Part shown: positions 25,356 through 53,027 of the stretch, piece by piece
Numbering within the stretch: the first letter of the stretch is position 1
Layout of the letters: each line of letters opens with the position of its first letter
Assembly (NCBI GenBank): GCA_963727485.1
Contig: CAVSGM010000003.1
Span: 448,001-512,000, forward strand
Length of the DNA: 64,000 nt
DNA from: an uncultured delta proteobacterium
GTDB taxonomy: Bacteria > Myxococcota > Myxococcia > SLRQ01
Direction: 5' to 3'
Made by a program: the position numbers and the translations under genes
The notes under the pieces: generated by a model
The model's database searches: none
What the model saw: only the letters and a program-made list of their open reading frames with translations
What the model was told of the DNA's origin: nothing

Positions 25356-28300
25356 ATGACGGGAGGACGGCGCTGGCTCGAGGCGGTGGTGGTGGTGTGC
25401 GCGGCGCTGGCGGCGACCCCCGCCTCGGCCCAGACGGCAACCCAGCGCGGGCTCGACTGGCTGCTGGCGCAGCAGGGGCCGGACGGGAGCTTTGGCGCGT
25501 CGACCGGCGAGAACCCGGTGCTGGCGACGTCGGAGGCGGTCCTGGCGTTGCGGGCCGAGGGGATGGGCGCGAGCGAGCAGGTGCAGGCGGCGGAGCTGTG
25601 GCTGTCGTTTCAGCATCCGGCTGACACGGACCTGGAAGCGCGGCGGTTGTGGGCGCTGCGAGACGGGCCGCTCCTTGACGAGGCGGGGATGGAGGCCCTG
25701 GCGGCCCGGGTCCTGGCGGACGGTCCAACGGGGCCCGATGCCGGGATGCGCACCGGCTGGGTGCCAACGCCGGACGTGCTGTCCCTGGCGCTCCTGGCCC
25801 TGGTTCCGGCCGATGGCTCGCGCGTGTCGTTGCCGTGGCTCCCCGCCGGCGGAGCGGGCGGGGGACCTGAGGCGTTTCAGGATCCAGGGCTCGTCCTCCT
25901 GAACATGGGACGCACCGACGGGTTCGGCCTCGTGGACTCGGCGAGCGATCCCTCGACCACCGGGATGGTCGGGGAGGCGCTCCGGCCCTTTCGCAGAATC
26001 CCTGGTTCCCTGGCCGGATCGATCTCGCGATCAGCGCCGGCGTATTGGCCAAGCAGCAGCCGTCGGGAGAGATCGGCGACGGCGCGCAGCCGGTCCTCGA
26101 CACCGCTCACGGGCTCCTCGCTCTCGCGGGCCTCGATGCCTCACGGTTCACGCAGAGCATTTCCACCGCAGGTGCCCGCGCCGACGGTTTCCTCGAAGGC
26201 GCACAGCGAAACGACGGAAGCTGGGGCGGGGGCGCATACGAGACGGCACTGGTGCTGCGTGCCCTGGGTTCACGGCTCCCCGACTACCGGGCCCCGACGG
26301 ACGAGCTGGGGCAGACCCACATCGCCCTGACCCCGTCAGCGCCCCTCGCCGGGCAGCAGGTGGTCGCCCGCGTCGAGGTGCAGGAGGCATCGACGACGTC
26401 CTCGCCCCCGACGACCGTCCGTCTGGTGGCTACGCCAGCGAATGGCGGCTCCCCCCTCACGCTCGCCGAGGTCCCCCTGGCGGCCCTGGCCGGGGGCACG
26501 AGCACGTATGTGGCGATGCCGTTCACGACCGCCGGGCTCTCGGGTGACTATCGGCTGGCTGCGACGTGCGATCCCGACCACCGGGTGCCGGAGATTCTGG
26601 AGACGAACAACGTCACCACAGGGGAGCTGCATGTCGTGAACACGGTGGATTCGGCGATTCCATCGTCGGATATCCACTTCGCTGACGGCGGCGCAGGTAG
26701 CGTACGGGTGGATGCGACGGTGCACGCCCTTGGGCAAGCCGTCACCACGCCGTTCGACGTGGCATTCTACATGGGCAGCCCGGGGAGCGGTGGCGCGCTC
26801 CTGGGCCGGGTTGCGCTCGCCTCGGTCGCCGCCGGAGGGTCCACCATTGCGTCGGTTACCTGGGACACGTCACACGTGGGCGGACCAACATCCGTGTACG
26901 CGGTCGTGGACCCCGGGCACGCGGTGACGGAGGCCACGACCGCAGACAACCAGGCGTTCCGGATCTACTTCCCAGGCTTGGAGAAGCAGGTGAGCCTGGC
27001 CGTGTACGACACGGACATCGTCCAGACGCCGAGACCGGCGTTCCCGGGAGACACGGTTGGCATCGATGTCCCCGTGCACAATCTCGCATCCAATGACGCC
27101 CAGCGGGTCCAGGTGGCGTTGGAGACGCCCGCGGGGATGCCCTACTCCGAGCTGGAGCTGGACCGCATCCCCGCCGGCGGGGTCGTGCACGCACACTTCA
27201 GCCTTCCGCTCGAGAACAGGACCGATGTGGTGGCGGTGGTGGACCCCGATGGCCTCCAGAATGACGCGACACGGTCCGACAATCGCGCCGCCTACTCGCT
27301 GCTGGTGAGTGATCAGGCTCATCCCATCGACGTCCGGGTCCAGACCCTGCTCTTTGCCAGCGGTGTCTTTCAAACGCCCCAGACCGTCACGGTCTACGCC
27401 GACGAGGCGGGCACCTCGGCCGTGGACACCAGCGTGGCGCTCTTCCGGGGAGATCCGGTCTTCGGTGGGGCCCAGGAGCTGGCGCGCCAGCCGGTACACA
27501 TCAAGGGGATCAAGAGTGGTGTCGCCGGCTCGGTCCGTCTCTCCTTCCCGGGGATCGTGCTCTCCGACGGTGAGACCCTCACCGCGTGCGTCGATCCCGA
27601 CCACACCCTGGCCGATGCCTTTCCTGACGACAACTGCATGAGCGTGACGGGTTCGACGGGCCGCAGCGACGTCGCCATCGACACTCGCGGCATCCAGATC
27701 AATCCAGTGGGTCCAGACGTCGGCGAGCCGATGACCGTGACGGCCGCCGTGCGAGAGCTCAGCGGGCATGACGCCTCGGGGGTCGCGAGGGTGTGGCAGG
27801 GGCGCCCCGGGTTCGAGGGCTCTCGGATCCTGGGGCAGAGGAAGTTCCACGTACCGGGCGGAGGCAAGACGACCCTCTCGTGGCGCCTCCTCCGGCCAAA
27901 GGGTGACTCGAACCTCTGGGTCGCGCTCACGGATGTGAACCCCGTGGACGCCGGCGAGTATCAGGACCTCGGATCCAACAACTTCGCCGTGCGCAACGTG
28001 TACCTCAAGGCCCTGATCGACACCGGACGCCGGTTCGGTCCGAGCAGGCTCATCTGGGCCACGGGGCCCGTGGTCGGCGACATCCAGGGAACCGGGCGTC
28101 CCGCCGTCGTCTTCGGGGAACACGCAGATGACGGAGTGCACGTAACCGCCATGTCCCTGTCCAAGGACGGCACACAGACGGAGCTGTGGAGCACCATCGT
28201 GGGCCCAGCCACCTACTCGGTCAGGACTCCGGTGCTGGCGGACCTGACGGGAGACGGACACCCGGACGTCCTGGTGGCGACCGCTGGCGTGGGAGGCACC

Positions 28301-31300
28301 TCCGCGACCGATTCTCGAGCTCGTACTCCTCGATGGTACCGGGACGGTCCTGTGGCGGCATTCGCTCACGATGGCCAACGCCGCCGCGCTGGATGCCAAG
28401 CGCCTTCCTGGGATTGCCGACGTGAACGGTGATGGAACGCCAGACGTCGTGATCTTCACTTCCGGAACAATCGTGGCGCTGGATGGTGCGACGGGCAATG
28501 AGCTCTGGAGCCGCAAGGCTGCCTTGCCCGGACTCGCCGTCGAGCCCAGCGGCCAGATGAGCATCGCAGACCTGAACGACAGCGGGAGGCCGGACTTCCT
28601 GGTCTCCACCGGCGGGCAGAACCTCGGTGTAGCGTCCCTGGCAGCCTATGGGAACGACGGGCGTCTGATGTGGTCCGGTACCTATCTCGGAGGACCGACC
28701 TCGGACGCGTTTGCCCTCCTGGACCTGGACCTGAATGGCGGGCCCGACGTTCTGGCCTCGGTCTACGATGGCTGGCTGGCTGCGTACACAGGCACGGACG
28801 GGCAGTCGCTCTGGCGACAGAAGTACCCTGCGACCGGTGCGGGAGTCGCTGCAGGCGACCTGCGCCAGGATGGTCTCACCTATCCGGTGGTGTCCACGCT
28901 GGCCAGGCCCGAGACTGCAGCCTTCCGGCCTGACTCTGGCTACCTGTGGCTAACGCAGCTGTCTTCGAGGGTCATCTCATTCAACGGTCAGCAATCGTCG
29001 CTGGCGGATCTCCTCGGGCTGGGCAGGCCCCAGGTCATCGCCGAATCTCTAGGCAGGACTTTCAATCTCCTCGACGGCCGCAATGGAAGGGTCCTGATCT
29101 CGACTGGCGACGTACGTGACGGCAACTACCATATTCCTCCAGTCATCGCCGACGTCGATGGTAACGGCCACGGCGACATCCTCGAGGCAGACGGAACCGT
29201 TGGCTCCTGGACGGGCTTCGACCCCTCAAACGACAACCGGTTCAGTCCTGCGGCGGTGGACGTCTTCTCCAGCGTTCACTGGAAGAAGATGCCAACCGTG
29301 TGGAACCGCGCCTTCTACGTGAAAGGCGAGGTCGACGAGCACCTGCACTTCCTCGGGGACTACCAGCCGTGGAAGACGCACAACACGTGGTTGGACCAGT
29401 TCTCGGGGAGCTCGCCGGCGAAGCTGCTGGCCGACCTGACGGTCGGGACCAAGGACATCGTGCTGGCGCCGGTGCAGCCGGCGGCGGGCGACACGGCGCA
29501 GGTGCAGGTGACGGTGCACAACGTGGGCGGGCTGCCGGCGTCCAACGTGGGCGTCGAGGTCTGGGACGGGGATCCCAAGGACGGCGGTCGCAAGATCGGG
29601 ACGGCAACGGCCGCGGGGCCGCTCCCGGTGCGGGGCGGCTCGGCGACGGTGTCGGTGCCCTGGACCGCGTACCCCGAGGGCGAGCATCACCTCTACGCGG
29701 TGGTCAACCCGGCGCACACCATCGAGGAGTCGGGGTACGAGAACAACGAGGCCCACGGGATCGAGCTGGTGGCGCCGGGGACGAACCTGGCGGACCTGGC
29801 GGTGACGGGGGCGGAAATGGCGGTGTCGCCGCCGGCGCCGGTGGCGGGGAACGCGACGACGATCTCCACCGCGGTGAGCAACAAGGGGGTCCGGGTGTCG
29901 GGGCCGTTCACGGTGGCGTGGTACGACGGGGTGCCGCGGCCGGGGCTGGCGCCCTTGGCGATGGCGCCGGCGCCGAGTCTCGCGGCGGGGAGCGCCGAGG
30001 TGGTGACGGCGCCGGTGGTGCTGGGGCCAGGGGGGCACGAGCTCTACGTGGTCGCCGACCCGGAGCAGGTGACGCCGGACGCCGACCGGTCGAACAACGT
30101 GGCGTGGCTGCCGGTGACGGTGCAGGTGCCGGCGGAGCCGGAGCTGACGGTGGCGGTGACCGCGGCACCGGCGACGGTGGTCGAGGGTCGGACCGCGACC
30201 CTCACGGCCACCGTGGCCAACCTGGGGCAGGCGGTCGCGAGCCCGGTGGTGCGCTTCTACCTCGGGGACCCCAAGGCCGGGGGCCAGGCGCTCGGCGACG
30301 TGCGGATCCGGGGGCTGGTGGGCACGGGGCAGACGGCGACGGCCACGGCGACGCTCGATACCCATGGCCTCGCCGGGTCACGGGCGGTGTACGCGGTGGT
30401 GGACCCGGACAACGTGATTGCCGAGTCCCGCGAGGACGACAACACCGCGACCACCACGGTGACGGTCACGGCGCCGCCGGTGACGCTCACGGTGGCTGCG
30501 GACCGCGCGACCTACGGCGCGAACACGGCGGCGACGCTCTCCGCCACGGTGGCCGAGCACACCGGGACGGCCCGGGACGTGAAGGTCGACGTGCGGATCG
30601 AGCGGCCCGACGGCAGCCTGGTGGCGGTTCCGGGGCAGGGCCTGGACGCGGTGGTGGCGGCGAACGGGACCTGGCCGGTGACGGCGACGTGGGGCACGGG
30701 GACCACGCCGGCGGGGGACTACGTGGTGCACGCGGTGGCGAGCGACGCCACCGGGGTGCTGGCCGAGGCGCGCACGGGCCTGACCATCCTCCCCGACGGG
30801 GGCCTCTTCGCGAGGGTGACGCTGGACAAGACGAGCTACCTGCCCGGGGACACGGCGCTGGTGACGACGCTCTTGCGCGACGACGGGGTGAACGCACCGG
30901 TGGGGCCGTTCACCTCGGTGGTGACGATCACCGGCGGCGGGGTGCGGTGGCAGGCAACCCGCCAGGTGCCGTCGCTCTCGCCGGGCGAGGACCGGACGGC
31001 GCTGGACGCGTACCCGGTGAGCCCGGACCTGGCGCCGGGGACCTATCAGGTGAGCCTGGCGGTCATGGACAGCGCCGGCGCGCCGGTGACCACCGAGGCC
31101 ACGCAGCTGGTGGTCGAGGCCACGACGCCGGCGACGGGGCTGTCGGCGAGCGTGGTGGCGACGCCGTCGCAGCCGGCGCCGGGCATGACGGTGGACGTGG
31201 CGGTGACCTTCACCAACCATGGCAACACCCAGGTCACGGGCGCGCCGGTGACCCTCGCGATCCGGGACGCGCAGACCCTGGCGGTGATCGCGACGGTGAC

Positions 31301-33974
31301 CGGGACGGTAACGGTGGCGCCGCGGCTCATGGCGGTGGTGAGCCTGCCCTGGCGGGTAACCGGGGTGACGCCGCCGGCGGACGTGCTGGCCACCGTGGAG
31401 GTCGGCGGCTCGATCCTGGCGAAGACGGTGATCCACGTGATCCACCAGGTGGACACCACGCCGCCGGTGGTGACGGTCACCGGGGTCTCGGACGGCGAGG
31501 TCACCTCGAAGGACGTGACGCCGGGGATCACGGCCACGGATGCGAGCCCGTTCACCATGGCGGTGAGCCTCGACGGCCTCGCCTACACCCAGGGGACGGC
31601 CATCAAGACCGAGGGCGACCACCTGCTCGCCATCGTGGCCACCGACATCTACGGCAACCGGACGAAGCTGAACCTCGCGTTTTCCATCGACCACACGCCG
31701 CCCAAGGTGTCGCTCACGGGCGTCGCCGAGGGTGAGGTGACGAACTCACCGCAGGTGACGGTCACCGCGGACGCGAGCGACGTGCACCTGGCCTCGGCAC
31801 TGCTCAAGGTCGACGGCACCATCGCCGACTCGGTCACGGGCCTCGCGGGCAAGCCGTATCACCACGACCTGGCCCTCGCCGCCGAGGGGGACTACACGGT
31901 GTACCTCTCGGCTCGGGACGAGGCGCAGCTCGGGGCCGAGGTCACCCGGCACTTCGCCATCGACCGGACGCCGCCGGCGGTGTCGCTGACGGGGATCGCC
32001 GACGGCAAGGTGGTCAACGCGGCGTCGGTGACGGTGCATGCGACCGCGAGCGACCTCCACTTCGCGAGCGCGACCCTCGAGCTCGACGGCGCGGTCGCGG
32101 CCACGGGGACGGCGCCGGGCCCGTTTGCCCACGACGTCACCGAGACGGCGGAAGGGGACTACACGGTGGACCTCTCGGCGGCGGACGCGGCGGGGAACAC
32201 GGCGTCGGCGCATCTCGGGTACGCCATCGACCGGACGCCGCCGACGATCACCATCACCGGGATCCCGGCGCGGTACACGCCGCTGGACGTGACGCCGGAG
32301 GTGAAGGTCAGCGACGCGCACCTCGATCCCAAGAGCGTGGTCATCACGATGAACGGGGCGCCGTTCACCCCGGGGACCCTGCTGCACGATGAGGGCGACT
32401 ACCACCTGGCGGTCCAGGCGGCCGACCTCGCGGGGAACACGGCGACGGCGACGGCGGACTTCACCATCGACCGGACGCCGCCTTCAATCACCACCACCGG
32501 GGTCACCGAGGGCGAGCTGTCGATGAACGTGGTCACGCCGCAGGTCACGGTGACCGATCGGAACCTCGACCCGGCGGCGGTGTCGGTGACCCTGAACGGC
32601 GTGGCCTACGTGAGCGGGACGCCCATCGGGGCGGACGGGGTGTACGCGCTGGCGGTGCACGCGGCGGACCTCGCGGGGAACACGTCCCGCGCCGAGGTCC
32701 ACTTCGAGGTCTTCCAGGTCCACGTGACGCTCACCAGCGGGCCGCGGGTGGGCAACGCGCTCATCCTCAGCTCCTGTGGCCAGTGCTCGTGCCCGGCGCC
32801 GGCGGTGCTGGCCGGGGCCCTGAAGGACGCGGGGCTGCCCGGCACGGTGGTGGCCTCGGAGGGCCAGTGGCAGGGCGCGGTGCGCACGGGGCTCTATGAC
32901 GTGCTGGTGCTCTACCGCAGCGACGCCGGCGAGGACGACCTCGACGACGAGGTGGTGGAGCTGGTGCGCCAGGGCGTGGGCCTGGTGGTGGTCAGCGGGG
33001 ACCACGCCTGCGACGACGAGTCGCACCTCGCCGAGGCGCTGGGGTCGCGGACCCGGGGGAAGGTCCAGGGCGCCACGACGCTGGCGATCACCAAGAGCAA
33101 CCTGGGCCCGGCCGAGACCCTGGCCTTTGCGGGCGACGCCACGGCCCAGAAGCTCGACGGGGCCACGGCCGTGGGCACGGCGGGGGGCGAGGTGGTGCTC
33201 TCCACGAACACCCTGGGCGCGGGCAAGGTCGCCTATCTCACCTTCGACCCGGAGGCGGCGCCGTCGCCCGACGCGATGTCGGCGCTCCTGGGGCGGGTGC
33301 TCACCTGGGTCCGCCCGGGGAAGCTCCTCGACCGGGTGCCGGATCAGGGCGTGGTCCTGGACCACACGGTGGACAACACGGGCCCGGCCCGCGACTACAC
33401 CCTGACCCAGGGAATCCCCACGGGGACGGTGGTGCTCTCGGCGCCGAAGTCCTCGGCGCTGACCCCGGCGGTCACCTGGCCGCTCTCGCTGAAGCAGGGC
33501 GAGACGGCGCTGCGCTTCAGCGCCATGCGCCTCCCGGACGCGGCAGGCACCTCGGCATTCCCCACGGACCTCGACGTGGTCCACCCGGTGCGCGGGCCGC
33601 TGCCGGTGGGGCACTCGTTGACCAAGGTCACGGTGCCCGTGGACCTGGCGACGCTGACCCAGGCGGCCAAGGACGCGGTGGCGGCGCTGCCGGGGCAGTG
33701 CCACGACCACGACGCCGAGGCGGCGGAGCTGCTGGCGCACCTGGCGTCGTCGCCGTCGACGCGCGAGGAGGCGGCGGAGACCCTGGAGAAGCTGGTCCAC
33801 GCCGCCGAGGCGCTGGGCAAGCTGGGGGCGCAGGGCGCGGCGGCCCGGGACGCGGTGGACCGGCTCATCCGGGCCTGGGAGGCGCAGTGGAGCGCGCTCC
33901 CGCCGGACAAGGACGATCACGGTAAGGACGACGACGCGGCCTGCGAGACCAAGGGCGGAGAGGCACACGAATGA
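25356..33974 (+). CDS. Giant secreted protein (~2,870 aa when joined): prenyltransferase-like alpha/alpha repeats, multiple CARDB domains, FG-GAP propeller, Ig-like repeats (frameshifts near 26010 and 28310)
   Basis: Signal peptide ending ASA; GLDWLLAQQGPDGSFG and AQRNDGSWGG; repeated VVDPxxxxxExxxxNN; ADLTGDG, ADVNGDG, ADVDGNG; repeated IDRTPP and DLAGN units. Confidence 0.75.
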
Positions 33975-36900
33975 GTCGGCGAGACCTCGGGGACGGCCAG
34001 TGGAGCTTCGGCGGTGGGTACCGGGCGCGGCCCGAGGATGCGCTGCCGCCGCGGTACGGGTGGAAGCTGCGGCTGGTCAGCGCGCTGGTGCTGGTGCCCT
34101 CGGTGGCGCTCTTCGGCGGCGGGCCGGCGTACGCGCGGGAGGCGGTGCGGCGGAGGGCGTCGTGACCCGGGCCGACGCCATCGCGTCGCGCGGGCACTTC
34201 GACCGGAAGATCGATCCTGGACCCCAAGGGGTGGCGAGCGGACCGGGCGGCGAAGGCCGAGGCAAAGCGGAAGGCCGAGGTGGCCGACATGCGCAAGCGC
34301 CTGGGGCCCGACCCCAAGAAGCTGGCGGCGCTCCACGCGGAGGTGAAGGCGATCCGGGCGGCGGCGCCGGACCCGGCGCCGGCGGCGTTGGCCCGAGGGC
34401 TCGACGCGGTGGCGCGGATGGCGGCCCGGGGAAAGCGGCCCCCGGCGTCGATGGTGAAGGCGCTGGCGATGGTGGCCAAGGAGGCCCGGCAGACGGCGGG
34501 GCGGCACAGTGCGGTGCTGCGCGCGCACGTGGACCGGGCGGTGCGGAGCATCCGGGGCCTGCGGCGGCTCCACGGCCTGTCGCTCAAGCGTGCCGGGCAC
34601 GCGGATCGAGGCGACGACGCCGCGGGTGAAGCCGTCGACGGGGCCCAAGAGTCCCACCTTCCACCCCATCAAGCTGAAGCGCCCGCGGACGCTCCCCAAG
34701 CACGCGGCGCTCTCGCCGTCGCTGGAGGACCTCTACGCCCGGTCGTCGGGCGCCTGGGTCGAGGGGGCCTGGGGCACCATCCCGGCGACCGAGCTGGCGG
34801 CGGTGGGGAGCACGGACGAGCTGTGGCTCCAGAGCAACCCCAAGGGGGTCGAGCTGGCCATGGCCGGCGGGCCGCTCCCGGTGCTCTCGGGCCTGCCCAC
34901 CTTCGCCCTGGCGGCGCCCACGGCGGCGGACACCCAGCCGTCGGTGGCGGCTCAGGTCACGCCGGAGATCCAGGCGCTCGCCGACAGGCTGGGCCACGAC
35001 CCGCTCACCCTCTACAACTACGTCCACGACCACATCCGCACCACGCTGTACTACGGCTCGGCCAAGGGCGCGGACGGGACGCTCCAGGAGATGGCGGGGA
35101 ACGACGCGGACCAGGCGTCGCTGTTGGTGGCGCTCCTGCGCGCCAGCGGGGTCCCGGCGCGCTACGAGTACGCCAACGTCACCCTCACCGGTGAGCAGGT
35201 CCGCTCGATGCTCGGCTTCGAGACGGCGCAGGCAGCGGTGGATGCCCTGGCGTACGTGGGCTACCGGGTGAAGTACGAGGTGAAGCCGGTGGCCACCACG
35301 CTCCCGGACGGCACCCAGGTGACCCAGGAGCAGGTGGCCCTGGTGCACATGGAGCGGGTCTTCGTGCGCGCCTACGTGCCCTACGGGGACTACCGGGGCA
35401 CGGGGCCGGGTACCGGTCGGCACATCTGGGTACGACTGGATCCCGCGGTGAAGCGGACGGTGTCCCATCGCACCGCGAACCTCCGCGGACTCCACGACCT
35501 CGACCAGCAGGCCTACCTCTCGAAGCTGGAGACCGAGGAGCCGGAGCAGGTGTGGGAGGACGGGCTCCTGGCGGCGGCCAAGCAGAAGAACGTGTGCACC
35601 ACGCTGGCCAGCGGCCTGTGGGCGCCGACACCGGTGAAGGAGCACTTCCAGCTCCTGCCCGCCGAGCACCCGGGGCACGTGGACTCGACGCTGATGGTCT
35701 TCGACGCCATGCCCCAGTCGCTGCAGCAGCGGGTGACGGTGACGGTGCCGGGGGGGACGCGGACGGTGCCCGCGGTGGACCTCTACGGCCAGGCGCTGCA
35801 CCTGACGTTCCCGGGCGCCACGGCTGCGGACCGGACGGCCATCGGCGACGACATCACCAAGGTGAAGCCGTACCTGGTGCAGGTGAAGCCCACGGTGACC
35901 GTCGGCGGCACGACGTGGCTGACGGGCGACGCGACGACGCCGGGGACGGCCATGGACCTGGGCGTGACCCTGCGGCTCCCCGCGGGCGTCCTGGTACCGG
36001 TGCACCACCACCTCACGGCGGGTGGCGTCTTCGTGGTCCGGCTGTCCACGGGGACGATGCCCCTGGGCCGGGTGGCCGGCGCCGACAAGGCCCTCGAGAA
36101 GCTCGGCACCGCGGCTGGGCGGGACGCGAAGGACCTGGGCCGCCTGGATGCCGTGGTGACGCGCTACATCCACAACGTGGAGACGAGCGCCGAGCACGCC
36201 TACGGCCTGGAGCGGTACGCCACGGTCAAGGACATGGTGGAGGCGATGGGCGGCCGGCCGGTGCAGGCGCAGTACCTCTACGGCCTGCCGGTGAGCCTGA
36301 CGCGAGGGGCCTACACCCTGGACGTGGCGCGGGAGTCCTCGTCGCCGCTCGCCGTGGACGGCGACGCCTCCCAGCGGGTGAAGCTGGGCGAGCTCATCGG
36401 GCTCGAGGGCAGCGATCTGGAGCACCGGTCGATGGAGGAGGTCCTGGACGGTACGGCGGTCAGCGCGGTCCGGACCATCGAGCTGGCGTACAGCCAGGGT
36501 ATCCCAGTCGAGACCATCACCAGCGCCGATGCGGCGAACATCGGAAGCCTGGTGGGGTACGACGACGGGACGCTGGCGGAGATGCGGAACGGGGTCGCGG
36601 CCGGCGAGACGCTGACGGCACCGGCGCGCACGGTGGACTACGGGGGGTTCACGGGGATCGAGGGGTACACGCTGGTGGACCCGCAGACGGGTGACGGGCT
36701 GTACCGGCTGGGGGCGAGCCTGAATGGGGCCAAGAGCAAGCCGGGCGCCCGGCAAGGAACCGGCGGGGCCTGCCAGTGCGGTGGGGGCGCCCCCGACGTG
36801 CCCGGGCCCAGCACGGGGCGCTTGAGCAACGGCGACATGACCGAGGCGCGCACGGACCTGCAGCTCCCGGCCGTCGGCATCCCCATCGTGCTCTCGCGCA

Positions 36901-39900: not shown

Positions 39901-40706
39901 TGTCGGACTCGTCCGGCACCGCATATCCGGTCGTTGATGCGCTCGGTTCGGCTTACAGATTTCTTGGGCCGGACGGGCGAACCATAGCCAAGGTTGCCTA
40001 CAGAGCCTTCGGCGGCTTGGCGACGACGGCAGTCCCCGCGAGAGGCGTCCCAGCATACGTCGGCCGCCCGTACGCTGCGCAGTCGACATTGGTGTACATG
40101 CGAAAGAGGTATCTTCGCACGGCGACCGGACGATGGAATAGGCCTGACCCAGCAAGGCGTGTTGGGCTGCCAAATAGGCTTGGGTCGGCCTGGAATGTGT
40201 ACGCATATGTCCTTGAGCGGCCGACTGGCCTCGTTGATCCGTTTGGCCTGAGGGCGGACCTGTCAGGCGCGGACTGGGCGGACAGACCAATCCAGCGAGC
40301 AAGGGTGCTTCATTTGTATGCGTTGCTAGATGGGATCCCTGCAGTTCATGCGTGGTTCGCGAAATGGGGACGTCCAGATCCCTTCATGAGCGTTCAGAAG
40401 TTCAATACGCAGGATATGCTAACATTTCAGACCATAATGTTCTATCTATCCAGCAAGGACTTCAGAAATGGCGACATGCTGGCAAACACAAATCCCTTCA
40501 CGGGCGAGATAACCATTACGGATGCTGGTCTTGCTCTCGGGGACCGCCGCCTTGCGGACAACATCATGCATGAGCTCAACAATTGGTCCTTTGTTGTGGA
40601 GTTCAGGTGGCCACACGACGCCACAGATTCAGGCGATGACAACTCGTACAACGCAGAGAACCCTGTGGATGAGTTCTTCTTCCATGGAGGAGGTGTCTGC
40701 CAGTGA
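33971..40706 (+). CDS. rhs: Rhs polymorphic toxin: signal-like N-terminus, transglutaminase-like domain, DUF6531-like region, YD repeats, Rhs core and CT (frameshifts near 34150, 34220 and 34590)
   Basis: ATGA overlap with the upstream gene; GNDADQASLLVALLRASGVPARY; TDLQLPAVGIPIVLSRTY...GTKWGFSY; many YD repeats; GRWNRPDP...YAYVLERPTGLVDPFGL. Confidence 0.88.
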
Positions 40707-41044
40707 GGAGCCCCCACGGTCTGCTGCCATCGCGGCGGTCGCCTTCGTTTGGAGCACGGGTTGCTGCTTTGTCGAGCGTGGCGTTTTCGGGCTGGTCAAT
40801 ATGGTGCAGTCGCCTGGTCACGTCCATTCATGCTGCAGAGAGTAGAATCTGGCACACGTGTCCGTCGGCCCTGAGGGGAGCTCCTGCTGGCGGTGTATTC
40901 TCCACAGTGGAGGCACTTAGGTTTCTGTCTCTCTTTGGCCTCGCCTTTGCGGGGATGGCTCTCACTGGCCGCCCACGGTGGATCGGGGCGACCGCCCTGC
41001 TGTTTGCGGTGGCGTCGGTTCTTGCGTCCTTCGTCATCCAGTGA
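40703..41044 (+). CDS. Putative membrane immunity protein for the main Rhs CT
   Basis: GTGA overlap with the toxin stop; small, about 3 hydrophobic segments, lower GC. Confidence 0.65.
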   Translation: MRSPHGLLPSRRSPSFGARVAALSSVAFSGWSIWCSRLVTSIHAAESRIWHTCPSALRGAPAGGVFSTVEALRFLSLFGLAFAGMALTGRPRWIGATALLFAVASVLASFVIQ

Positions 41045-43725: not shown

Positions 43726-43992
43726 TTGTCCGCGGCTGCATGGATGTGGGTCATTGCCCTTTTCCATGTGGCAAGCACTGTTTGGCGAGTTGGCTTGGCC
43801 GCATATCTTTTTGGCGACGTCCTTGTGCTTGCTCTGGCACTCGGCAGGGAGTGGCCTGATGGCCCGCCGGGCGAAGAAGCCAAGCCCCCTCGCCTTCTAA
43901 CTCTCCTGTCCCTTGTGGGCTTTGCTCTGGCCGCGGTCATCGTCCTGGGGCTTGTGGTCCAGTGGCATATGCCTGGACTCCTGTCCGGCTAG
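43726..43992 (+). CDS. Putative membrane immunity protein for the orphan 1 CT (true start may be near 43694)
   Basis: About 3 TM segments; directly after the CT. Confidence 0.6.
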   Translation: MSAAAWMWVIALFHVASTVWRVGLAAYLFGDVLVLALALGREWPDGPPGEEAKPPRLLTLLSLVGFALAAVIVLGLVVQWHMPGLLSG

Positions 43993-44049
43993 CGCCGGGA
44001 GTTGCCTGGCACTCTGGGTGCGACGTGGATCCTGGGCCCGTTCCGCCTT

Positions 44050-46582
44050 GGTGGACGCCCTTGGGGACCGGGCCACGGCAAGCTACGACGTGCTGGGCCG
44101 GCAGATGTCCACCAAGGACGCCTTGGGCCACACGACCCACACGGAGTACGATGCAGACGGCCGGGTGGAGGCGACGGTGGACGCGCGGGGCGCCCGGACG
44201 GAGAGGACCTACGACGCCGTGGGACGTCTCATCGCGACGAAGATGGCCGACGGGGGTACCACCGGGTACGCGTACTGCGCGGACGAGCCGGGGTCGGCGC
44301 CGTGCGAGGTGGTGGACCCCATGGGCCGGGTCACCACCATGAAGCACGATGCCCTGGGCCGCCAGAGCTCGGTCACCGACGCCCTGGGCGACACGAGCAC
44401 CACCACCTACGACAAGATGGGCCGGCGGTCCTCGGTCACCGACCCCAACGGCCACACGACGAAGTACAGCTACGACCACGACGGCCGGCTGTTCAACGTG
44501 ATGAGCCCGCTGTCGGCCTACAACGCCTCGGTGACCTACGCCTACGACGCCCGGGGCAACCGGACCAAGGTCACCGACGCCCTCGGTCACGCGACAACCT
44601 TCGCCTACGACCTGGCGAACCACCTGCTGACCGAGACCACGCCCATCGGGACCACGACCAGCTACACCTACGACCCCACGGGCAACCGGGCGACGCGGAC
44701 CGACGCCTCGAGCCGGACGACGACCTACACCTACGACCCGAACCACGAGCTGCTGGAGAAGCACTTCGCCGACGGGGTGGTGCACACGTTCAAGTACGAC
44801 AGCCGGGGCAACCGGACCTACGAGGAGGACCCGGCGGTGGCGAGGACGCGGGTCTACGACGCGATCAGCCGGCTGAAGTCGGTGACCGACCACGCGCTGA
44901 ACAAGACCATCGACTACCGCTACGACGCCAACGGGAACCGGACGAGGCTGACCTGGGACGGGAAGGTGATCCGGTACCAGTACGACCAGATGAACCGGCT
45001 GGTGGAGGTGGTGGACCCGGAGGGCGGGATCGCGCGGCTGACCTACGACCGGTCGGGGAAGCGGACGAGCCTCACCTACGCGAACGGGATCCTGGCGAGC
45101 TACCGGTATGACGGGGCGGGGCGGCTCACGGACATCGTGTACACCAAGCCCGACGGGACGGTGGTGGAGAGCTTCCACTACGACCTGGACCGAGCGGGGA
45201 ACCGGCTGACCAAGGGCTTCGCGGACGGGACGCGGGAGGTGTACACGTACGACGCGGCGAACCGGCTGACCGGGGTGACCTACGGCGACGGGCGGCACGT
45301 GAGCTACAACCTGGACCTGGTGGGCAACCGGCAGGCGCTCCGGGAGACCAACCCGAACGGCTCGGTGGCCCGGGACGAGACCTACCGGTACAACGCGTTC
45401 AACCAGCTGACGACGCGGACGATCTCGACCGGGTACCCGAACCGCACGGTGGAGACCTACGGGTACGACCCCCAGGGGGCGATGACGAGCAAGGTGGCGC
45501 AGGTCACGACCAGCGCCGGTACCACAACCGAGACGACGACCTACAGCTACAACAGCAACGAGCGAATGACGGCCGTCGTTCTGCCAGATGGAGCAACAAA
45601 CTCCTTCGCTTACGACGCCGCCGGGCGCAGGGTGTACCGCCAGACAACATCGGTCCGTACCAGTTATCTGGAAAGTGACGGGAAGGTTCTGGCTGCCTAC
45701 GGCTCCGGCTCGGCTTCTTCGGAGGTGCTCGTTTGGGATCCGGACCGTAGGGCCGGCCTTGTAGAAGTGGCAGACCCCTCCGGTGTGGTCACCCCCCTGG
45801 CCGACGCGCTGGGCAGCCCGTATCGGTACCTGACTTCAGACCGGGACTACTCCGCATCCTACACTGCCTATGGGGCCTCCAATGTGCTTGCCGACCCTGC
45901 GTACCTCGATTGGTCGTTCGCGGGCCTGCAACTCGATAGACAGGCCCACCTTCTGTACGGGCACAACCGGTACCTGATCTCGGGGATTGGTCGATGGAAC
46001 AGGCTCGATCCGGATGGTCATGGCTACCTGTACGTTCGCGACAATCCGGTGATGTGGATCGACCCAGAGGGTCTCTACCGAGTAGGTAATGATGTTGCTC
46101 CGATTGGCATCGACGCGATGACGATTGAAAGCGCCTATTATAGCATTCTTCTCAACCTGGCATCAGGCAAGCCTTGTTCGACGTGCGAGGCATACTTCAG
46201 CGAGCTCGGGATGGAGTTCAAGCCACAGCAGGAGAAGGTGTGGGGCTTCGTGACGATGTATCAACAGCTCGATATCGTTGCGATCAATGTGGCCACCCTT
46301 GAGACGAAGCAGCCGGAAATTGCATTGAGGCTCAGAAGCGGAGACCTCAACGACCTGAACAATGGTTACTCGGTGCCGGGAAAGCCAGCGATGTGGCTGC
46401 TGAAGGAGACTCTCACGTACGCTCCCATGTGTTCTATCGAACACACGATTGTCCACGAACTGGCGCACACCATGGGTCTTCGGGATGAGGCTCGCGCCTA
46501 TCTTGAGGTCCCGGGTGCTTGTGGATTCTTCAAGCCAGACTGCTACTACGTTCCCCTTGGCATTGGGCCGTGGCATGAGTAG
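44050..46582 (+). pseudogene. Orphan rhs cassette 2 with an HExxH metallopeptidase-like CT
   Basis: Core copy; DNPVMWIDPEGL; TIVHELAHTMGLRDEARAY. Confidence 0.82.
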
Positions 46583-47027
46583 GCGCGTCTTCGTCTTGGC
46601 GATCCTTGGGGTCCTATCTTGCAGAGCGAGGGGTGCGCCAGGGGAGGTGTCCTCCGGTGACGCCTCACAACACCAGGCGGCCATGGCATGCTCTAAGGTG
46701 ACGCTGCATCCCCTAGAACAGTACTGGGCCGACGCCTATGGGAAGCCTGGTCACGTAGTAGAACAACCATGGACAGCGATCCCGGCCTTTTCCGGGTCGC
46801 GCCCGTTGGGCTTCAAGGTCGTGCGGCTTCGCCAAGGGTGGTCTCACCGTTTGAAGATACGCCCGGGAGATATCATTGTGAGCGTAGCCGGAAGACCGAC
46901 AGTCAACCCGGATCAGATGCTGGCCGTCATGGACAAGATCAAGGCAAGCCATCCAGCGACGGTGAGGGTCTACATGTTGCGCGGTGGTCACCGGGTATGC
47001 AGCGACTACCAGTTGGTATGGCGCTAG
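46575..47027 (+). CDS. PDZ-domain lipoprotein, putative immunity protein of orphan 2
   Basis: MSRRVFVLAILGVLSC lipobox; GFKVV...IRPGDIIVSVAG...RGG PDZ pattern; overlaps the CT stop. Confidence 0.7.
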   Translation: MSRRVFVLAILGVLSCRARGAPGEVSSGDASQHQAAMACSKVTLHPLEQYWADAYGKPGHVVEQPWTAIPAFSGSRPLGFKVVRLRQGWSHRLKIRPGDIIVSVAGRPTVNPDQMLAVMDKIKASHPATVRVYMLRGGHRVCSDYQLVWR

Positions 47028-47037
47028 AGCCAACGGT

Positions 47038-49600
47038 CGCCTTGGGCCACACGACCCACACGGAGTACGATGGGGACGGCCGGGTGGCGGCGACGGTGGA
47101 CGCGCGGGGCGCCCGGACGGAGAGGACCTACGACGCCGTGGGACGTCTCATCGCGACGAAGATGGCCGACGGGGGCACCACCGGCTACGCGTACTGCGCC
47201 GACGAGCCGGGGTCGGCGCCGTGCGAGGTCGTGGACCCCATGGGCCGGGTGACCACCATGAAGCACGACGCCCTGGGCCGCCAGAGCTCGGTCACCGACG
47301 CGCTGGGCGACACGACCACCACCGCCTACGACAACATGGGCCGGCGCTCGGCGGTCACAGACCCCAACGGCCACACCACCAGGTACACCTACGACTACGA
47401 CGGCCGACTCCGTCAGGTGATGGGCCCGCTGTCGGCCTACAACGCCGAGGTGGCTTACCGGTACGACGCCCGCGGCAACCGCACCAAGGTCACCGACGGC
47501 CTCGGCCACGCGACGACGTTCACCTACGACCTGGCGAACCACCTGCTCTCCGAGACCACGCCCATCGGGACCACCACCAGCTACACCTACGACCCCACGG
47601 GCAACCGGGCGACGAGGACCGACGCCTCGAGCCGGACGACGACCTACACCTACGACCCGAACCACGAGCTCCTGGAGAAGCACTTCGCCGACGGGGTGGT
47701 GCACCGGTTCCAGTACGACAGCCGGGGCAACCGGACCTACGAGGAGGACCCGGCGGTGGCGAGGATGCGGGTCTACGACGCCATCAGCCGGCTGAAGTCG
47801 GTGACCGACCACGCGCTGAACAAGACCATCGACTACCGCTACGACGCCAACGGGAACCGGACGAGGCTGACCTGGGACGGGAAGGTGATCCGGTACCACT
47901 ACGACCAGATGAACCGGCTGGTGGAGGTGGTGGACCCGGAGGGCGGGATCGCGCGGCTGGCCTACGACCGGTCGGGGAAGCGGACGAGCCTCACGTACGC
48001 CAACGGGATCCTGGCGAGCTACCGGTACGACGGGGCCGGGCGGCTCACGGACATCGTGTACACCAAGCCCGACGGGACGGTGGTGGAGAGCTTCCACTAC
48101 GACCTGGACCGCGCAGGGAACCGGCTGACGAAGGGCTTCGCGGACGGGACGCGGGAGGTGTACACCTACGACGCGGCGAACCGGCTGACCGGGGTGACCT
48201 ACGGCGACGGGCGGCACGTGGACTACGGCCTGGACCTGGTGGGCAACCGGCAGGCGCTGCGGGAGACCAACCCGGACGGCAGCGTGGCCCGGGACGAGAC
48301 CTACCGGTACAACGCGTTCAGCCAGCTGACGACGCGGACGATCGCGGCGTACGGCGCCGCTGGCACGACGCGGACAACCGAGACCTACGGGTATGACCCG
48401 CAGGGGGCGATGACGAGCAAGGTGGCGCAGGTGACCACCAGCGCGGGCAGCACGACCGAGACTACGATCTACGCCTACAACACAGATGACCGTCTGATCC
48501 AGGCGACCCTGCCCAGTGGAACCAAGGAGGAGTATTCCTACGGGCCGAATGGACTTCGTGTCACTTGGAAAAGCCCCCAGGGTTTGCGCCAATACGTAAT
48601 GGATAGGTCGACGGTCCTCGAAGCGGTGGGCGACTCTGCCATGGGATCCTATGTTCTCACAGAGAATCCAGAACGTTCGGATGAGACGCTCACAGCGCTA
48701 GTAGTTGCCGCGGATCGCCCGGCAACACGCCGGCCGGTCTATCCAGTCACCGACGCCCTTGGTAGCTGGTACGGAGTCACGGACAGCTCCGGCGCACCTG
48801 AGCTTGGCGCCTCGTATGACGCCTACGGTCGCCCCACTCCGATGTCGAGCCCCGGCTTGCCTGTGGCCTTTCAAGGGCGCACTATCGATGAAAGTGGCCT
48901 CCTCTATGCGCGGTCGCGGTACCTTGACCCAGTGCTAGGTTTGTGGCTGCGGCCAGATCCCCTTTCGGAGTCCAGGCTGCGCGGCGACCCGGAATACGCA
49001 TTCTCTGACTTGGGTGCGCGGACGAATCCAGAGTCGCCGCCGCGTGCCGCTAGTCAAACCTATGTATTTGCGCATCGGAGTCCGACCATGTGGGTCGACC
49101 CCACCGGGCTGCGGGCGGACCTGTCAAGTTCAGAATGGCTCAGATGGCCAATTACAAAGGTGAGGGTGTTGTATCTGTATCGAATGCTCGCGTCAGACTC
49201 ACGCGCCCATGCATGGTTTGCCAAGTGGGGACGGCCAGATCCGTTCTTCAACGTTGAGACGTTCTACATGGAATTCCATCATTACTTGATGTCTGCTTTC
49301 ATTGGTGTTCAGGAGTTGATCGACGGAATGGGAAACGTGCTCTCTGACACTGGGACTTGGACGCATGACATTTACATTACAGAGGCTGGAGCAGAGCTGC
49401 CTGACGCCAATCTAATGGCCCAGGTGATAATGCATGAGCTGAACAACTGGTCATTCCTTGCGGAGTATGAACTCCCGCATGACAACAGCTTGCCGGATGG
49501 ATCCTACACGGCTGAGAATACAGCATATGATATATACTATGACGTCATGTCGGATCACAGCGCTGCCTGCGGTGACAGACCGATCCATGCCCCTGAGTGA
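47038..49600 (+). pseudogene. Orphan rhs cassette 3 with an HELNN-type CT, paralogous to the main CT
   Basis: Core copy; SPTMWVDPTGL; shares HAWFAKWGRPDPF and IMHELNNWSF with the main CT. Confidence 0.85.
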
Positions 49601-49659
49601 AGTGCTTGGTGTGTCTGTCCAGGGGCGTTGCTTGAAGGCGGTCGCTGGGAGTGCTTGAT

Positions 49660-49971
49660 ATGAAAGAACGAATTGGGGGTGTTTACGTCTACCTCGCCGC
49701 GTGTGCCGGCAGCTTTGGCCTGTCCCTGACTTCCCTGATTGTTTCGGGCGTGGCTGCAAGGCTCAATGGCGCCATGCGCGGGCTTCCACGCGGACTCGTG
49801 ATCAGCTCTGGGCTGGCCCAGGCGGCAGCGCCCCTGGACTGGTTCCGTCTACTTGCTCCCGTTGCGCTCCTGCTGGCGTTGCCTTGCGCGGTGAGGCCGA
49901 TGCGGGTGCTTGGGGTCATTGCCTTGGCTACTGCGGTAATCGCAGTCGGCTGTGCCGGGCTGTTCCCCTGA
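49660..49971 (+). CDS. Putative membrane immunity protein for orphan 3, distantly similar to 40703..41044
   Basis: About 3 TM segments; AMRGLPRGLVIS versus ALRGAPAGGVFS. Confidence 0.65.
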   Translation: MKERIGGVYVYLAACAGSFGLSLTSLIVSGVAARLNGAMRGLPRGLVISSGLAQAAAPLDWFRLLAPVALLLALPCAVRPMRVLGVIALATAVIAVGCAGLFP

Positions 49972-50071
49972 GTGCACGCAGAATGCAGCACCTATTGCGA
50001 GGTACACCTAGGAGCCGCTTCACTGGACAGAAGCCTGCTGGGCACCTCGGGTCCAAGGCCAAACGGAACGA

Positions 50072-50854
50072 ACGGAGTACGATGCAGACGGCCGGGTGGA
50101 GGCGACGGTGGACGCACGGGGCGCCCGGACGGAGAGGACCTACGACGCCGTGGGACGTCTCATCGCGACGAAGATGGCCGACGGGGGCACCACCGGGTAC
50201 GCCTACTGCGCGGACGAGCCGGGCTCGGCGCCGTGTGAGGTGGTGGCGGATCACATGGGCCCGCGGTCCTCGGTCACCGACCCCAAGGGCCACACCACCA
50301 GTAACACCTACGACTACGACGGCCGGCTCCGCCAGGTGATGGGCCCGCTGTCGGTCTACAACGCCGAGGTGGCCTACCGGTACGACGCCCGCGGCAACCG
50401 CACCAAGGTCACCGACGGCAATGGCCACGCGACGACGTTCACCTACGACCTGGCGAACCACCTCCTGTCCGAGACCACGCCCATCGGGACCACGACCAGC
50501 TACACCTACGACCCCACGGGCAACCGGGCGACCCGGACCGACGCCTCGAGCCGGACGACGACCTACACCTACGACCCGAACCACGAGCTGCTGGAGAAGC
50601 ACTTCGCCGACGGGGTGGTGCCTCTGTGCGAGGAGGACCCGGCGGTGGCGAGAACGCGGGTCTACGACGCGACCAGCCGGCTGAACTCGGTGACCGACCA
50701 CGCGCTGAACAAGACCATCGACTGCCGCTACGACGCCAACGGCAACCGGACGAGGCTGACCTGGGACGGAAAGATGTTTCGGTACCGGTACGACCAGCGG
50801 CTGCTCAGACTGTCGCTTGGCGTCTGTGGAAACGACGTGGATGCACTGACATGA
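50072..50854 (+). pseudogene. Degenerate orphan rhs fragment 4: internal deletions, Rhs core and CT lost
   Basis: Starts at the same ACGGAGTACGA junction; deletions after PCEVV and DGVV; homology ends near 50795. Confidence 0.8.
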
Positions 50855-51069
50855 ACCGGACGCCGACGCCTGCGGACTTGGACGTCGATGGGCTCCCGGG
50901 GTGGACCTTTGACCTGGACGAGATATCAGCCGGCGGCTTCCGCATCCGCGCGGAGGATGCGGCAGGGCGTACGGTGGAGCTGACGGGTACCGATCCGGGC
51001 GCCCTCGTCGAAGACTGCAAGGCCGCAGTGAAGGGTCTGCTGGGACCCCCGCCGGGTGTCGAGGACTGA
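50851..51069 (+). CDS. Small acidic protein, candidate orphan immunity protein
   Basis: ATGA overlap with the fragment 4 stop; 72 aa, LPGWTFDLDEISAGGFRIRAED. Confidence 0.55.
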   Translation: MNRTPTPADLDVDGLPGWTFDLDEISAGGFRIRAEDAAGRTVELTGTDPGALVEDCKAAVKGLLGPPPGVED

Positions 51070-51090
51070 CCGCGTTTGGGGATCGTCTAC

Positions 51091-51396
51091 ATGGTGAGCC
51101 TGTGGGACCTGCTCTCCCTGCTTGTCGGGTGCGCGGCCGCCGGGGGCGGCTGCGCGGCGGTGTCGATCTACCGTGGCAGCGGCCTGCGGGAGATCGTGGC
51201 TTTGGTGATTGTTGCCGGTATCGCGATCGCGTCGGTGCCGGCAGTTCGTGCCGTGGGCCATCTGGTGGTCAAGCGAGCCGGTGCGTCGCCCTCGAGGCGG
51301 CGTTTCGTGGCCCCCTATGCGGTTGAGCTCGTGGGCATCGTGATCTTGCCGATGGTCGCCTTCCTCCTGGTTCGCCTCGTCCTGGGGGGCAGATGA
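51091..51396 (+). CDS. Small 3-TM protein, candidate immunity protein; paralog of 52716..53027
   Basis: MVSLWDLLSLLVG...VGIVILPMVAFLLVRLVL. Confidence 0.6.
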   Translation: MVSLWDLLSLLVGCAAAGGGCAAVSIYRGSGLREIVALVIVAGIAIASVPAVRAVGHLVVKRAGASPSRRRFVAPYAVELVGIVILPMVAFLLVRLVLGGR

Positions 51397-51431
51397 GTCG
51401 GCCACCCGAGCCGGCGCGAAAGGAGTAGCGC

Positions 51432-52038
51432 ATGGGCTGGTGGGAAGAGGCGGATGGCGCGCGCGTCGGGGACGAGGTCCTCGACGAACTCGACGACGTG
51501 CTCGACCAGGTGGGCGCCGCCTTGGCGCAGGAGCGAGGTGACCCGCCCACCGCAGCCGACATCTCGGCCATCCTCGCGGCGGCGCTGGAGACGCTGCGCG
51601 GCGAGCCAGTGGAGGTGGCCATCGAGCTGGAGCCCACCAGGCGGCCGAAGCGGCGCGCACCACGGCCCCCGGGCATCGAGCCTCGAGCCGGCGAATCTCC
51701 TGTGCCTCACGCTTGGGGACGGCAGGCACGGGCTGGCGCGCGTGCTTCGCGTCGAAGGCGCCGACTACCTGGTGGAGGCGATCGAGGGCGTCTACGCGAC
51801 GCCGCCGGCGCTGGGCGAGATCACCACGCTGGCGCCTCTTCGTGCCCCCGGCGCCGGTGGGGACGCGAGCGTCTTCCCGGTCCTCGTCGTCGATCCCCCG
51901 CCGGCCTCGGCCACCATGGTCGGCACCGTGCCCCCAACCCCGGCCGAGCGGCGGCGCGAGCCGCAGGCGCTGCAGGACTGGGACGGCCTGGCCGCGGCCA
52001 TCCTCGAGGACTCGCAGTCGCCGCGGGGTCCCGCATGA
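51432..52038 (+). CDS. Imm26-like immunity protein (frameshift near 51690)
   Basis: AAGGAG RBS; AG(N)LLCLTLGDGRHGLARVL...VEAIEGVYATPP; paralog of the next gene. Confidence 0.55.
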
Positions 52039-52622
52039 GCCAGGCGGCCATCGACCTCATCGAGGAGGCATTGAACCGGTGCACGCGGGCGTACCAGCAG
52101 GCGTTCGACGCGCCGCCCACGGTCGCCGACCTCTCGGCGCTGCTCTCGGCGGCGGTGGGCACCTTCTTCGACGCGCCGGCCCGCGTGACCCTGCACCCCC
52201 CGGGTCAAGGCCCTGCGGCGCCGCGCCCGGCATCGCAGCGGTCGCCCCCACCGGAGCTGGAGGTGCAGCCCGCGCGCGTGGGCGACGTCCTGGCGCTCGA
52301 GCTCGACGACGGCCGGCTCGGCGTGGCCCGCATCCTCCAGGTGGCCCGGCGCGGCTACGTGGTCGAGGCCCTCGACGGCGTCTTCGAGGCACCGCCGACC
52401 CTCGACCAGGTGCGCGCCCTCGAGCGCCTCCGGGAGCACGGCGGCCCGTTCGCGGGGCAGGCGCTCGTCCGCCACGTCGATGGCGAGCCTCCGGCCTCGG
52501 CGCGCCTGCTGGGCCGCCTCCTCCCGACCGTGGCCCAGTACCGCGAGGCGCCGCGGATTTACGAGGAGTGGTCGAGCGTCACCGGCGACATCCTCCGGAG
52601 CACGTCGAGCCGGCGGCAGTGA
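52035..52622 (+). CDS. Imm26-like immunity protein
   Basis: ATGA overlap; VGDVLALELDDGRLGVARIL...VEALDGVFEAPPTL. Confidence 0.6.
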   Translation: MSQAAIDLIEEALNRCTRAYQQAFDAPPTVADLSALLSAAVGTFFDAPARVTLHPPGQGPAAPRPASQRSPPPELEVQPARVGDVLALELDDGRLGVARILQVARRGYVVEALDGVFEAPPTLDQVRALERLREHGGPFAGQALVRHVDGEPPASARLLGRLLPTVAQYREAPRIYEEWSSVTGDILRSTSSRRQ

Positions 52623-52715
52623 CTTGACCGGTTCCGGAGGCCAGCACTCCGGAGTTTCGGGTCTCCCACTCGCCATCTGGGCCCAAGTTGACGCAACATC
52701 CCGACCATAGGGGGT

Positions 52716-53027
52716 GTGCCCATGGCGAGTCTGTTGGAAGTGTTCTCGCTGCTGGTGGGTGGCGGGACGATCGCGGGTGGCCTGGCGGCGCCGTCACTTG
52801 GCCGCGCCAGCGTGCTGGCTGGGTTCCTCGTCTCGGCGCTCATCGTCGGCATGGCCTTCGGGGCGGTGCGGCTGGTGCGCATGGCCTGCCGCCGGATCAT
52901 GGCGCGCGCAGGCGACGCGCCTCGGGGTCCGCTGGTGGTGGTGCCCTGCGTGATCCAGCTCGCGTCGATCGGGATCATGCCGGTGGTCACCTTCTTCGTG
53001 GTCCAGCTGGTCCTGACCAAGGGCTGA
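52716..53027 (+). CDS. Small 3-TM protein; paralog of 51091..51396
   Basis: MASLLEVFSLLVG...ASIGIMPVVTFFVVQLVL. Confidence 0.6.
   Translation: MPMASLLEVFSLLVGGGTIAGGLAAPSLGRASVLAGFLVSALIVGMAFGAVRLVRMACRRIMARAGDAPRGPLVVVPCVIQLASIGIMPVVTFFVVQLVLTKG

Follow-up and report, generated by a model that had tools for sequence, protein, structure and literature searches.

A toroid-headed protein encoded beside an inactive-transglutaminase Rhs carrier: a putative two-protein platform for polymorphic toxins

The locus described here lies in a window of 64,000 nucleotides (G000:C3:448001-512000), the whole stretch of DNA analysed, from a 14-contig, 5.55-Mb assembly of 73% GC and 93% completeness. Matches among class-level kin and named relatives suggest that the host belongs to Myxococcota. 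Two very large genes, A (25356-33974; 2,873 codons) and B (33971-40706; ~2,245 codons), follow each other on the forward strand, the stop codon of gene A and the ATG of gene B sharing ATGA at 33971-33974; these coordinates and codon counts bear out the preliminary description, made from the sequence alone, of a ~2,870-amino acid (aa) protein overlapping a ~2,240-aa protein by ATGA. Gene B is followed by an immunity-like gene, four cassettes and a tail of five open reading frames (ORFs), all forward-oriented, and the locus is bounded by a serB-like gene (24345-25259) on one side and an oppositely oriented gene on the other.

Gene A, delineated from ORFs, Pfam matches and homologue alignment, has two frame breaks and begins with a putative signal peptide (25356-25430), which is basic and hydrophobic and ends in ASA as judged by eye and by hydrophobicity. 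An alpha/alpha toroid (25422-26290), built of squalene-cyclase/prenyltransferase/thioester domain (TED)-like repeats and split by the first break, is matched by the toroid family profile in two frames (profile positions 3-179 and 193-270). Downstream of it are a first set of CARDB/Ig-like repeats (26320-28000; PF07705), an FG-GAP repeat region (28000-29380), a second set of CARDB repeats (29400-30480), an MG2-like Ig module common to many partners (30537-31262; 143 bits with its own profile, under cut-off with Pfam MG2), and Big_13/Big_3 repeats with a C-terminal region (31450-33974). CARDB, FG-GAP and Big_13/Big_3 are recognized by Pfam, the squalene-cyclase and MG2 matches being weak; together with the toroid profile, this agrees with the alpha/alpha-toroid, CARDB, FG-GAP and Ig-like repeats read earlier in the giant protein. 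The FG-GAP region is the least conserved part, and it is a candidate specificity region on two grounds: its GC content at third codon positions (GC3) is the lowest in gene A (0.77-0.84 vs 0.96-0.98 downstream), and the corresponding part of the intact homologue L017 matches only itself among the loci compared.

Proteins of this kind encoded beside relatives of gene B (hereafter partners and carriers, respectively) have in common across phyla the N-terminal alpha/alpha toroid, often together with the MG2-like module. CARDB, FG-GAP, Big, vWA, carboxypeptidase-regulatory, discoidin, PKD and dockerin domains are variably present, and partner length ranges from ~550 to ~6,000 aa. It is the toroid that defines the partner, the remainder varying freely, rather than the CARDB and FG-GAP repeats by which the protein was first characterized. 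Sorting signals are seen at some partner ends, IPTL-CTERM in L099 and, by eye, PKTG with a hydrophobic stretch and a basic tail in L037.

Gene B, traced through ORFs, Pfam matches and gaps in contigs from other runs, opens with a stretch (33971-34135) that by sequence and hydrophobicity resembles a signal peptide ending in AYA. This corresponds to the "hydrophobic N-terminus" of the preliminary description, whose transglutaminase-like domain, YD cage and C-terminal tip are all present. Next comes a conserved module of ~620 aa (34872-36740), delineated by profile and fold prediction, followed by DUF6531, the YD-repeat cage and an Rhs core ending in DPxG (36825-40247; Pfam and cassette comparison). 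Pfam reports Transglut_core (PF01841, above cut-off), DUF6531 and RHS_repeat. The transglutaminase forms only the front part of the module (predicted fold with a predicted local distance difference test score, pLDDT, of 89), and this half fits transglutaminase-like structures (3isr, Z 13.2, root-mean-square deviation 3.4, 152 residues aligned). The back half of ~350 aa, folded alone, gave pLDDT 95; no chain among 48,161 matched it at Z >= 5 (best 4.6), nor did Foldseek return a match at E <= 0.001 in PDB or BFVD. This predicted fold is possibly new, a negative structure search not in itself establishing novelty.

The catalytic cysteine site of the transglutaminase is occupied by aspartate in gene B and the histidine site by arginine. 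Among 188 module proteins not fetched by the motif, 140 fitted its pattern and 48 did not; in none of the 140 is the cysteine site occupied by Cys. The histidine site holds His in 48 of 65 rows of the module alignment. The domain is, judged from these residues, catalytically inactive, and cross-linking by an active transglutaminase was rejected.

A YD array is present in only 11 of 55 complete carriers by motif count, and in 1 of 150 best representatives, a set biased by the profile. The remaining 44 of 55 are without Rhs, which rules out docking of the Rhs cage as the general role of the transglutaminase domain, as had been proposed. Carriers without Rhs fuse their tips directly, these being nucleases, HINT-linked toxins, peptidoglycan hydrolases and lipase-like domains. 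A gut-associated clade (L037, L052, L053, L055, L060, L100, L104) has carriers of ~950 aa with short tails, no Pfam toxin match and no obvious immunity gene, and possibly represents toxin-less surface complexes.

The layout of gene B has a precedent. Zhang et al. (2012; PMC3482391) described, in the Sec/type II secretion class, proteins with a signal peptide or transmembrane helix, a transglutaminase without triad residues, RHS repeats and a variable C-terminal toxin, and proposed that the inactive transglutaminase anchors the toxin at the surface by binding peptides. Gene B shares the signal-peptide-like N-terminus, the loss of C/H/D triad residues, the RHS array and the variable C-terminus, so that "undescribed", as it was first called, does not hold for this gene; by the features tested, the locus works like, and belongs to, the inactive-transglutaminase polymorphic toxins. 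The difference is that in that paper the domain precedes RHS repeats, whereas most carriers here are without RHS. The first 300,000 of its 357,715 characters contain none of the words macroglobulin, CARDB, prenyltransferase, squalene, toroid or FG-GAP and name no partner gene; its gene-neighbourhood supplement may show the partner. Full-text searches of the literature, in which subscription journals are mostly not covered, gave no account of the toroid partner, of the larger ~620-aa module or of a majority of carriers without Rhs, and the covered portion of PMC10318531 holds nothing relevant to the system. On these three points the system appears to be a new variation on the described type, with a fair chance of being a distinct delivery platform.

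The module profile retrieved 4,488 clusters (50% identity) at E <= 1e-30 among 1.84 billion representatives. A motif scan of species genomes gave 295 loci, of which 80 were kept; these fall in Myxococcota, Bacillota, Nitrospirota, Desulfobacterota, Verrucomicrobiota, Gamma- and Betaproteobacteria, Acidobacteriota, Chloroflexota and Actinomycetota, with one Paceibacterota record. Within the DNA examined for each locus, the toroid or MG-module profile matched in 62 of the 80, and in 45 of the 52 for which 5 kb or more of upstream sequence was available. The partner is encoded upstream or downstream of the carrier and shares its strand everywhere except in L102. Plasmid pA of Spartinivicinus ruber has a prenyltransferase-repeat gene immediately before a module-Rhs gene, and records of Ruminiclostridium hungatei and Pelotomaculum propionicicum also carry the pair. 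One distant protein, P0037, fuses module and toroid; no such fusion occurs in the loci or in any of the 120 toroid proteins listed, which measure 2,000 aa at most.

As the profiles had been trained on loci of this set, a two-way test was carried out in 301 Myxococcota genomes, in 37 of which the module was found. A full-length toroid of at least 100 bits, a cut set after the list had been seen (full-length matches >= 107, partial cyclase-type matches <= 81), was present in 34 of the 37 module-bearing genomes vs 2 of the 264 others. The 40 full-length toroid matches are spread over 36 genomes, the same 34 among them. Thirty of the 40 are no more than 20 kb away from a module gene, 29 of these sharing its strand; another 8 lie on other contigs of module-bearing genomes, which are fragmented, and 2 are in genomes without a module match, both at contig ends. 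The three module genomes below the cut are the present one (G000), whose toroid is split between frames, G084 and G166, the last an unpublished genome counted only in this co-occurrence tally. At least 7 of the genomes so tallied supplied alignment rows, and only 4-8 candidates per genome were scored. Co-occurrence in other genomes, on which the first proposal of a two-protein system depended, is thus recorded both by locus and by genome.

Several loci differ in arrangement. In L135 (3284-19999), a single partner gene precedes two carrier genes in tandem, one of 2,004 aa and the other of more than 3,276 aa, which suggests that one partner may serve several carriers. In L038, L056, L068, L070 and L088 the order is reversed: carriers with NlpC/P60 or unidentified tips come first, then beta-propeller genes, then the partner. 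The L077 pair comes from a 0.7-Mb genome whose record bears the label Candidatus Paceibacterota, and L134 (8782-10416) is a stand-alone toroid gene of 545 aa close to the end of its contig, the genome having no module match. Among viral contigs, a single query gave 0 loci and an alignment 1; carriage by phages is unsupported, phage records having given only a short transglutaminase match.

Binding of the toroid to the module was examined by complex prediction with the intact L017 pair, which scored 0.44 as compared to 0.00 for the best control, the runs agreeing in at least 59% of contacts with a partner pLDDT of at least 74. Of 157 solved complexes, 116 reach the mark applied, as do 2 of 215 mismatches; only 18 of the 157, and both mismatches, do so with a score of 0.60 or under. 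Since binding was already a likely guess beforehand, the prediction raises its odds only modestly and lends weak support to a toroid-module contact.

Of 95 carriers, 79 have a hydrophobic stretch within the first 70 residues, as do 54 of 58 partners, vs 1 each in control windows, in line with the signal-peptide-like N-termini of genes A and B and with the Sec export proposed earlier. Searches of the whole genome (93% complete), in which control queries were detected, returned no VgrG, Hcp, TssC or PAAR; the absence of PAAR, VgrG and Hcp, first noted for the window only, is thereby extended to the genome, and to TssC. In two sets of other carrier genomes, which have one genome in common, TssC was detected in 6 of 38 and in 1 of 5. 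The lack of any marker here and the rarity of TssC elsewhere support the view that type VI secretion (T6SS) is not required. Delivery of gene B by T6SS was rejected, as no PAAR or VgrG was found on the toxin and no T6SS marker in the genome, and so was Tc-type (TcB/TcC) delivery, the two SpvB matches being on contig C2 with none at the locus. SpvB-type N-termini occur at two other Rhs loci unrelated to this one (G000:C2:~841900-846800 and C2:~1866700-1874400; C3:23-112). The search of the genome for TpsB gave no match, but its control query also matched nowhere. Contig C2 holds a gspC-D-E-F-G-like operon, and a divergent carrier in Methylomonas adjoins type II secretion genes.

The toxin end of gene B, tip 0 (40248-40706; 152 aa), is zincin-like with HELNN replacing HExxH; it had no Pfam match, and in Atlas it joins Tox-MPTase3 clusters at 0.92, with 141-147 shared features vs 170 typical of true family matches. 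The immunity-like ORF 0 (40703-41044) follows, a small membrane protein by position and hydrophobicity. A ~1.45-kb block of gene B (bases 38216-39763) is repeated in the four cassettes with 93-95% identity, the fourth being a remnant (87-95%). Cassette 1 (41180-43678) has the common YD block, its own core end and, in a frame other than that of the core, a hydrophobic tip of four helices (43202-43678); it is followed by immunity-like ORF 1 with two hydrophobic helices (43726-43992). Cassette 2 (44083-46582) ends in a zincin-like tip with a complete HExxH (HELAH; 46073-46582; Peptidase_M57 and Zincin_1 under cut-off), before immunity-like ORF 2 (46575-47027), which has a lipoprotein-like N-terminus (LSC) and a PDZ-like domain. 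Cassette 3 (47030-49600) carries a zincin-like tip (49109-49600) that is 44% identical to tip 0 and likewise has HELNN; immunity-like ORF 3 (49651-49971) is a small hydrophobic protein. Cassette 4 (50057-50854) proved on sequence comparison to be an internally deleted remnant without core or tip. Four orphan cassettes had been reported, and four with the common block are indeed there, of which the fourth has no tip and the first has its tip out of frame.

The tail of five small ORFs (50851-53027), read from sequence and hydrophobicity, consists of one at 50851-51069, two membrane proteins 38% identical to each other (51076-51396 and 52716-53027) and two ORFs that are 37% identical (51432-52038, in two frames, and 52035-52622), for which Imm26 is only a lead. 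The tail of immunity-like ORFs reported earlier is present, though cassettes 1-3 each also own an immunity-like ORF. GC3, at 0.96-0.98 in the common block, drops to 0.60-0.66 in the tips, a fall that tips of foreign origin would be expected to show. Because the immunity-like neighbours are membrane proteins or a lipoprotein-like PDZ protein, the probable target of the window's tips, of which two or three are zincin-like and one is hydrophobic, is the envelope of competing bacteria. In relatives, AHH, WHH, REase-5/7, CDI-EC869, Ntox15/16, deaminase, NlpC/P60, M23, amidase and DUF900 tips were found, the survey of best representatives covering 41 of 150 proteins; CdiI, SMI1/KNR4, Tdi1 or DMP19 are often encoded after them. 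Across homologues, a conserved N-terminus is thus combined with diverse tips, as in polymorphic toxins.

These observations are best accommodated, with moderate confidence, by a two-protein, Sec-exported and T6SS-independent polymorphic toxin platform, in which the toroid is a docking head and the variable stalk serves display or targeting; the reading is drawn from sequence and prediction, export, binding and killing all being predicted. Both proteins would leave the cytoplasm by Sec, as their N-termini suggest, and in this diderm host the outer membrane would probably be crossed by the type II system. Protein B would be the carrier, its dead transglutaminase and second domain forming the conserved module that bears a swappable toxin. 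Rhs proteins cleave themselves, and here the toxin would be packed in the Rhs cage and freed at the DPxG site. Protein A is predicted to bind the module through its N-terminal toroid, and its variable Ig-like, propeller, lectin or vWA chain would display the toxin on the surface or aim it at the target cell, a role close to the stalk or receptor-binding partner first envisaged. The silent cassettes may swap the tip by recombination through the common 1.45-kb block, following the rhs model.

Certain observations weigh against this reading. The window's tips all fall short of the cut-offs of curated toxin families, the second His of HExxH is missing from tips 0 and 3, the window's own immunity-like ORFs match no family above cut-off, and most tips and downstream genes of relatives have no Pfam match. 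Gene A has no clear membrane anchor by Pfam and hydrophobicity. Divergent module-Rhs genes on two plasmids (L139, L140) and a viral contig (L138) have no toroid gene in the DNA examined, lone module-toxin genes occur (L131, L132), though the same genomes hold a linked pair elsewhere, and in G084 and G166 the module is partial and no toroid attains 100 bits. Furthermore, some of the counted loci had served to train the profiles, and related genomes are not independent of one another.

The partner could instead be an export chaperone or adaptor, which stabilizes the module in secretion and is then released without display or aiming. The toroid alone is common to nearly all partners, and the shortest of them (545-590 aa; L087, L134, L141) extend barely beyond it; most partners, however, have long, variable, adhesin-like domains, some with surface-sorting signals, which are needless for a pure chaperone, and this explanation is considered unlikely. 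It is decidedly improbable that gene B is a stand-alone Sec-exported Rhs toxin as in the 2012 description, gene A being an adhesin on the same island: partnerless module copies exist and both genes are patchy like island genes (absent from 4 of 4 same-family genomes searched), but the two-way co-occurrence, the linkage kept across phyla despite changes in gene order, and the one fusion argue against it.

About as improbable is that the toroid, as a prenyltransferase/cyclase-like or thioester-like domain, has an enzymatic or lipid-binding function by which the toxin or the envelope of the target is modified. Its profile does match squalene cyclases, prenyltransferase beta subunits and TEP/complement thioester domains, and an MG2-like domain is often present. 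However, DxDD, the catalytic motif of class II terpene cyclases, occurs in 1 of 51 toroids, and CxEQ, the thioester motif, in 0 of 51, the toroid alignment having no invariant column; a class II terpene cyclase and a thioester protein (A2M/TEP) were both rejected as identities of the partner on these counts. Alpha-2-macroglobulin, TEP and complement proteins likewise combine a TED-like alpha/alpha toroid with MG2-like Ig domains in one secreted chain, whereas the toroid here is N-terminal and without the thioester motif, and the matches are under the Pfam cut-offs, a likeness of parts only.

Frame breaks disturb both large genes, as the preliminary description had suspected in proposing indels. 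Gene A is spread over three frames (ORFs 25356-26330, 26045-28432 and 28371-33974), with breaks near 26000 and near 28340; gene B has a stop at 34163-34165 (break region 34140-34215) and a frame change near 34600. Intact homologues of similar length (2,873 aa in L017, 2,659 in L015 and 2,718 in L027) span the breaks of gene A with the same domain order. In contigs from other public runs, of 85% likeness and depths of only 2-3, there are gaps over 28241-28392 (one) in gene A and over 34142-34292 (two; 34212 in two runs) and 34492-34643 (one) in gene B. No RNA data set is listed as containing the locus. The contig gaps are single-base ones at 3 of the 4 breaks, the contig rows listed not covering the one near 26000, and elsewhere in the genome 11 of 79 conserved genes change frame vs a same-family genome; for both reasons, the breaks are most likely assembly errors. 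A decaying pseudogene pair, for which the four breaks, further ones in cassettes and tail, and a density above the genome background might be cited, is the least probable explanation of all, given those low-depth gaps, the frame changes elsewhere and a GC3 that holds at 0.95-0.98 across most of genes A and B.

Returning to the two-protein platform, Bacillus subtilis WapA-type Rhs proteins and rhs orphan-cassette arrays combine Sec export, a YD cage, a DPxG end, toxin-immunity pairs and silent cassettes sharing core sequence, all of which the present locus appears to have. To our knowledge, WapA has neither a transglutaminase module nor a toroid partner. The review PMC10433427 names WapA. The Rhs4 and Rhs5 proteins of Myxococcus xanthus are described as ~4,000-aa, signal-bearing and T6SS-independent, with a recognition mode that is not known (PMC10433427, PMC10047993); they serve kin discrimination and lie on the Mx-alpha prophage (PMC10433427). 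Module-Rhs frames of ~3,900-4,070 aa in several Myxococcota genomes resemble these very large signal-bearing proteins, the likeness being by description and not by sequence; in contrast, the two ~4,000-aa module loci inspected sit among chromosomal genes and insertion sequence elements.

The display and aiming of large polymorphic toxins that are exported by Sec, where neither T6SS nor TpsB serves, still call for an explanation. A conserved partner that joins a constant docking head to a body that varies would be a direct and testable one. The near-constant partner points to an overlooked delivery system common to many bacterial groups. More tentatively, toroid and pseudo-transglutaminase module could together be an unrecognized, self-contained machine for toxin display and targeting, with thousands of families (4,488 clusters) in diderms and monoderms, a carrier half of possibly new fold and an interchangeable targeting subunit built of complement-like parts. 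Rhs would then be only one optional payload, and such a machine, if real, could account for the delivery of the T6SS-independent Rhs toxins used by myxobacteria in kin discrimination. The conserved partner also gives a name to a large unannotated protein family and brings many uncharacterized toxin tips into view, and the pair is approachable in the cultured, harmless isolates of S. ruber, R. hungatei and P. propionicicum noted above.

Two further features of the window lie outside the pair. A 1,233-aa ORF at 19288-22989 joins PPDK-type domains to a C-terminal aldose 1-epimerase domain, either as a true fusion or through an assembly join. Just past the immunity tail, a 628-aa protein with DUF7151, collagen and BNR propeller repeats is encoded on the reverse strand (54162-56048).

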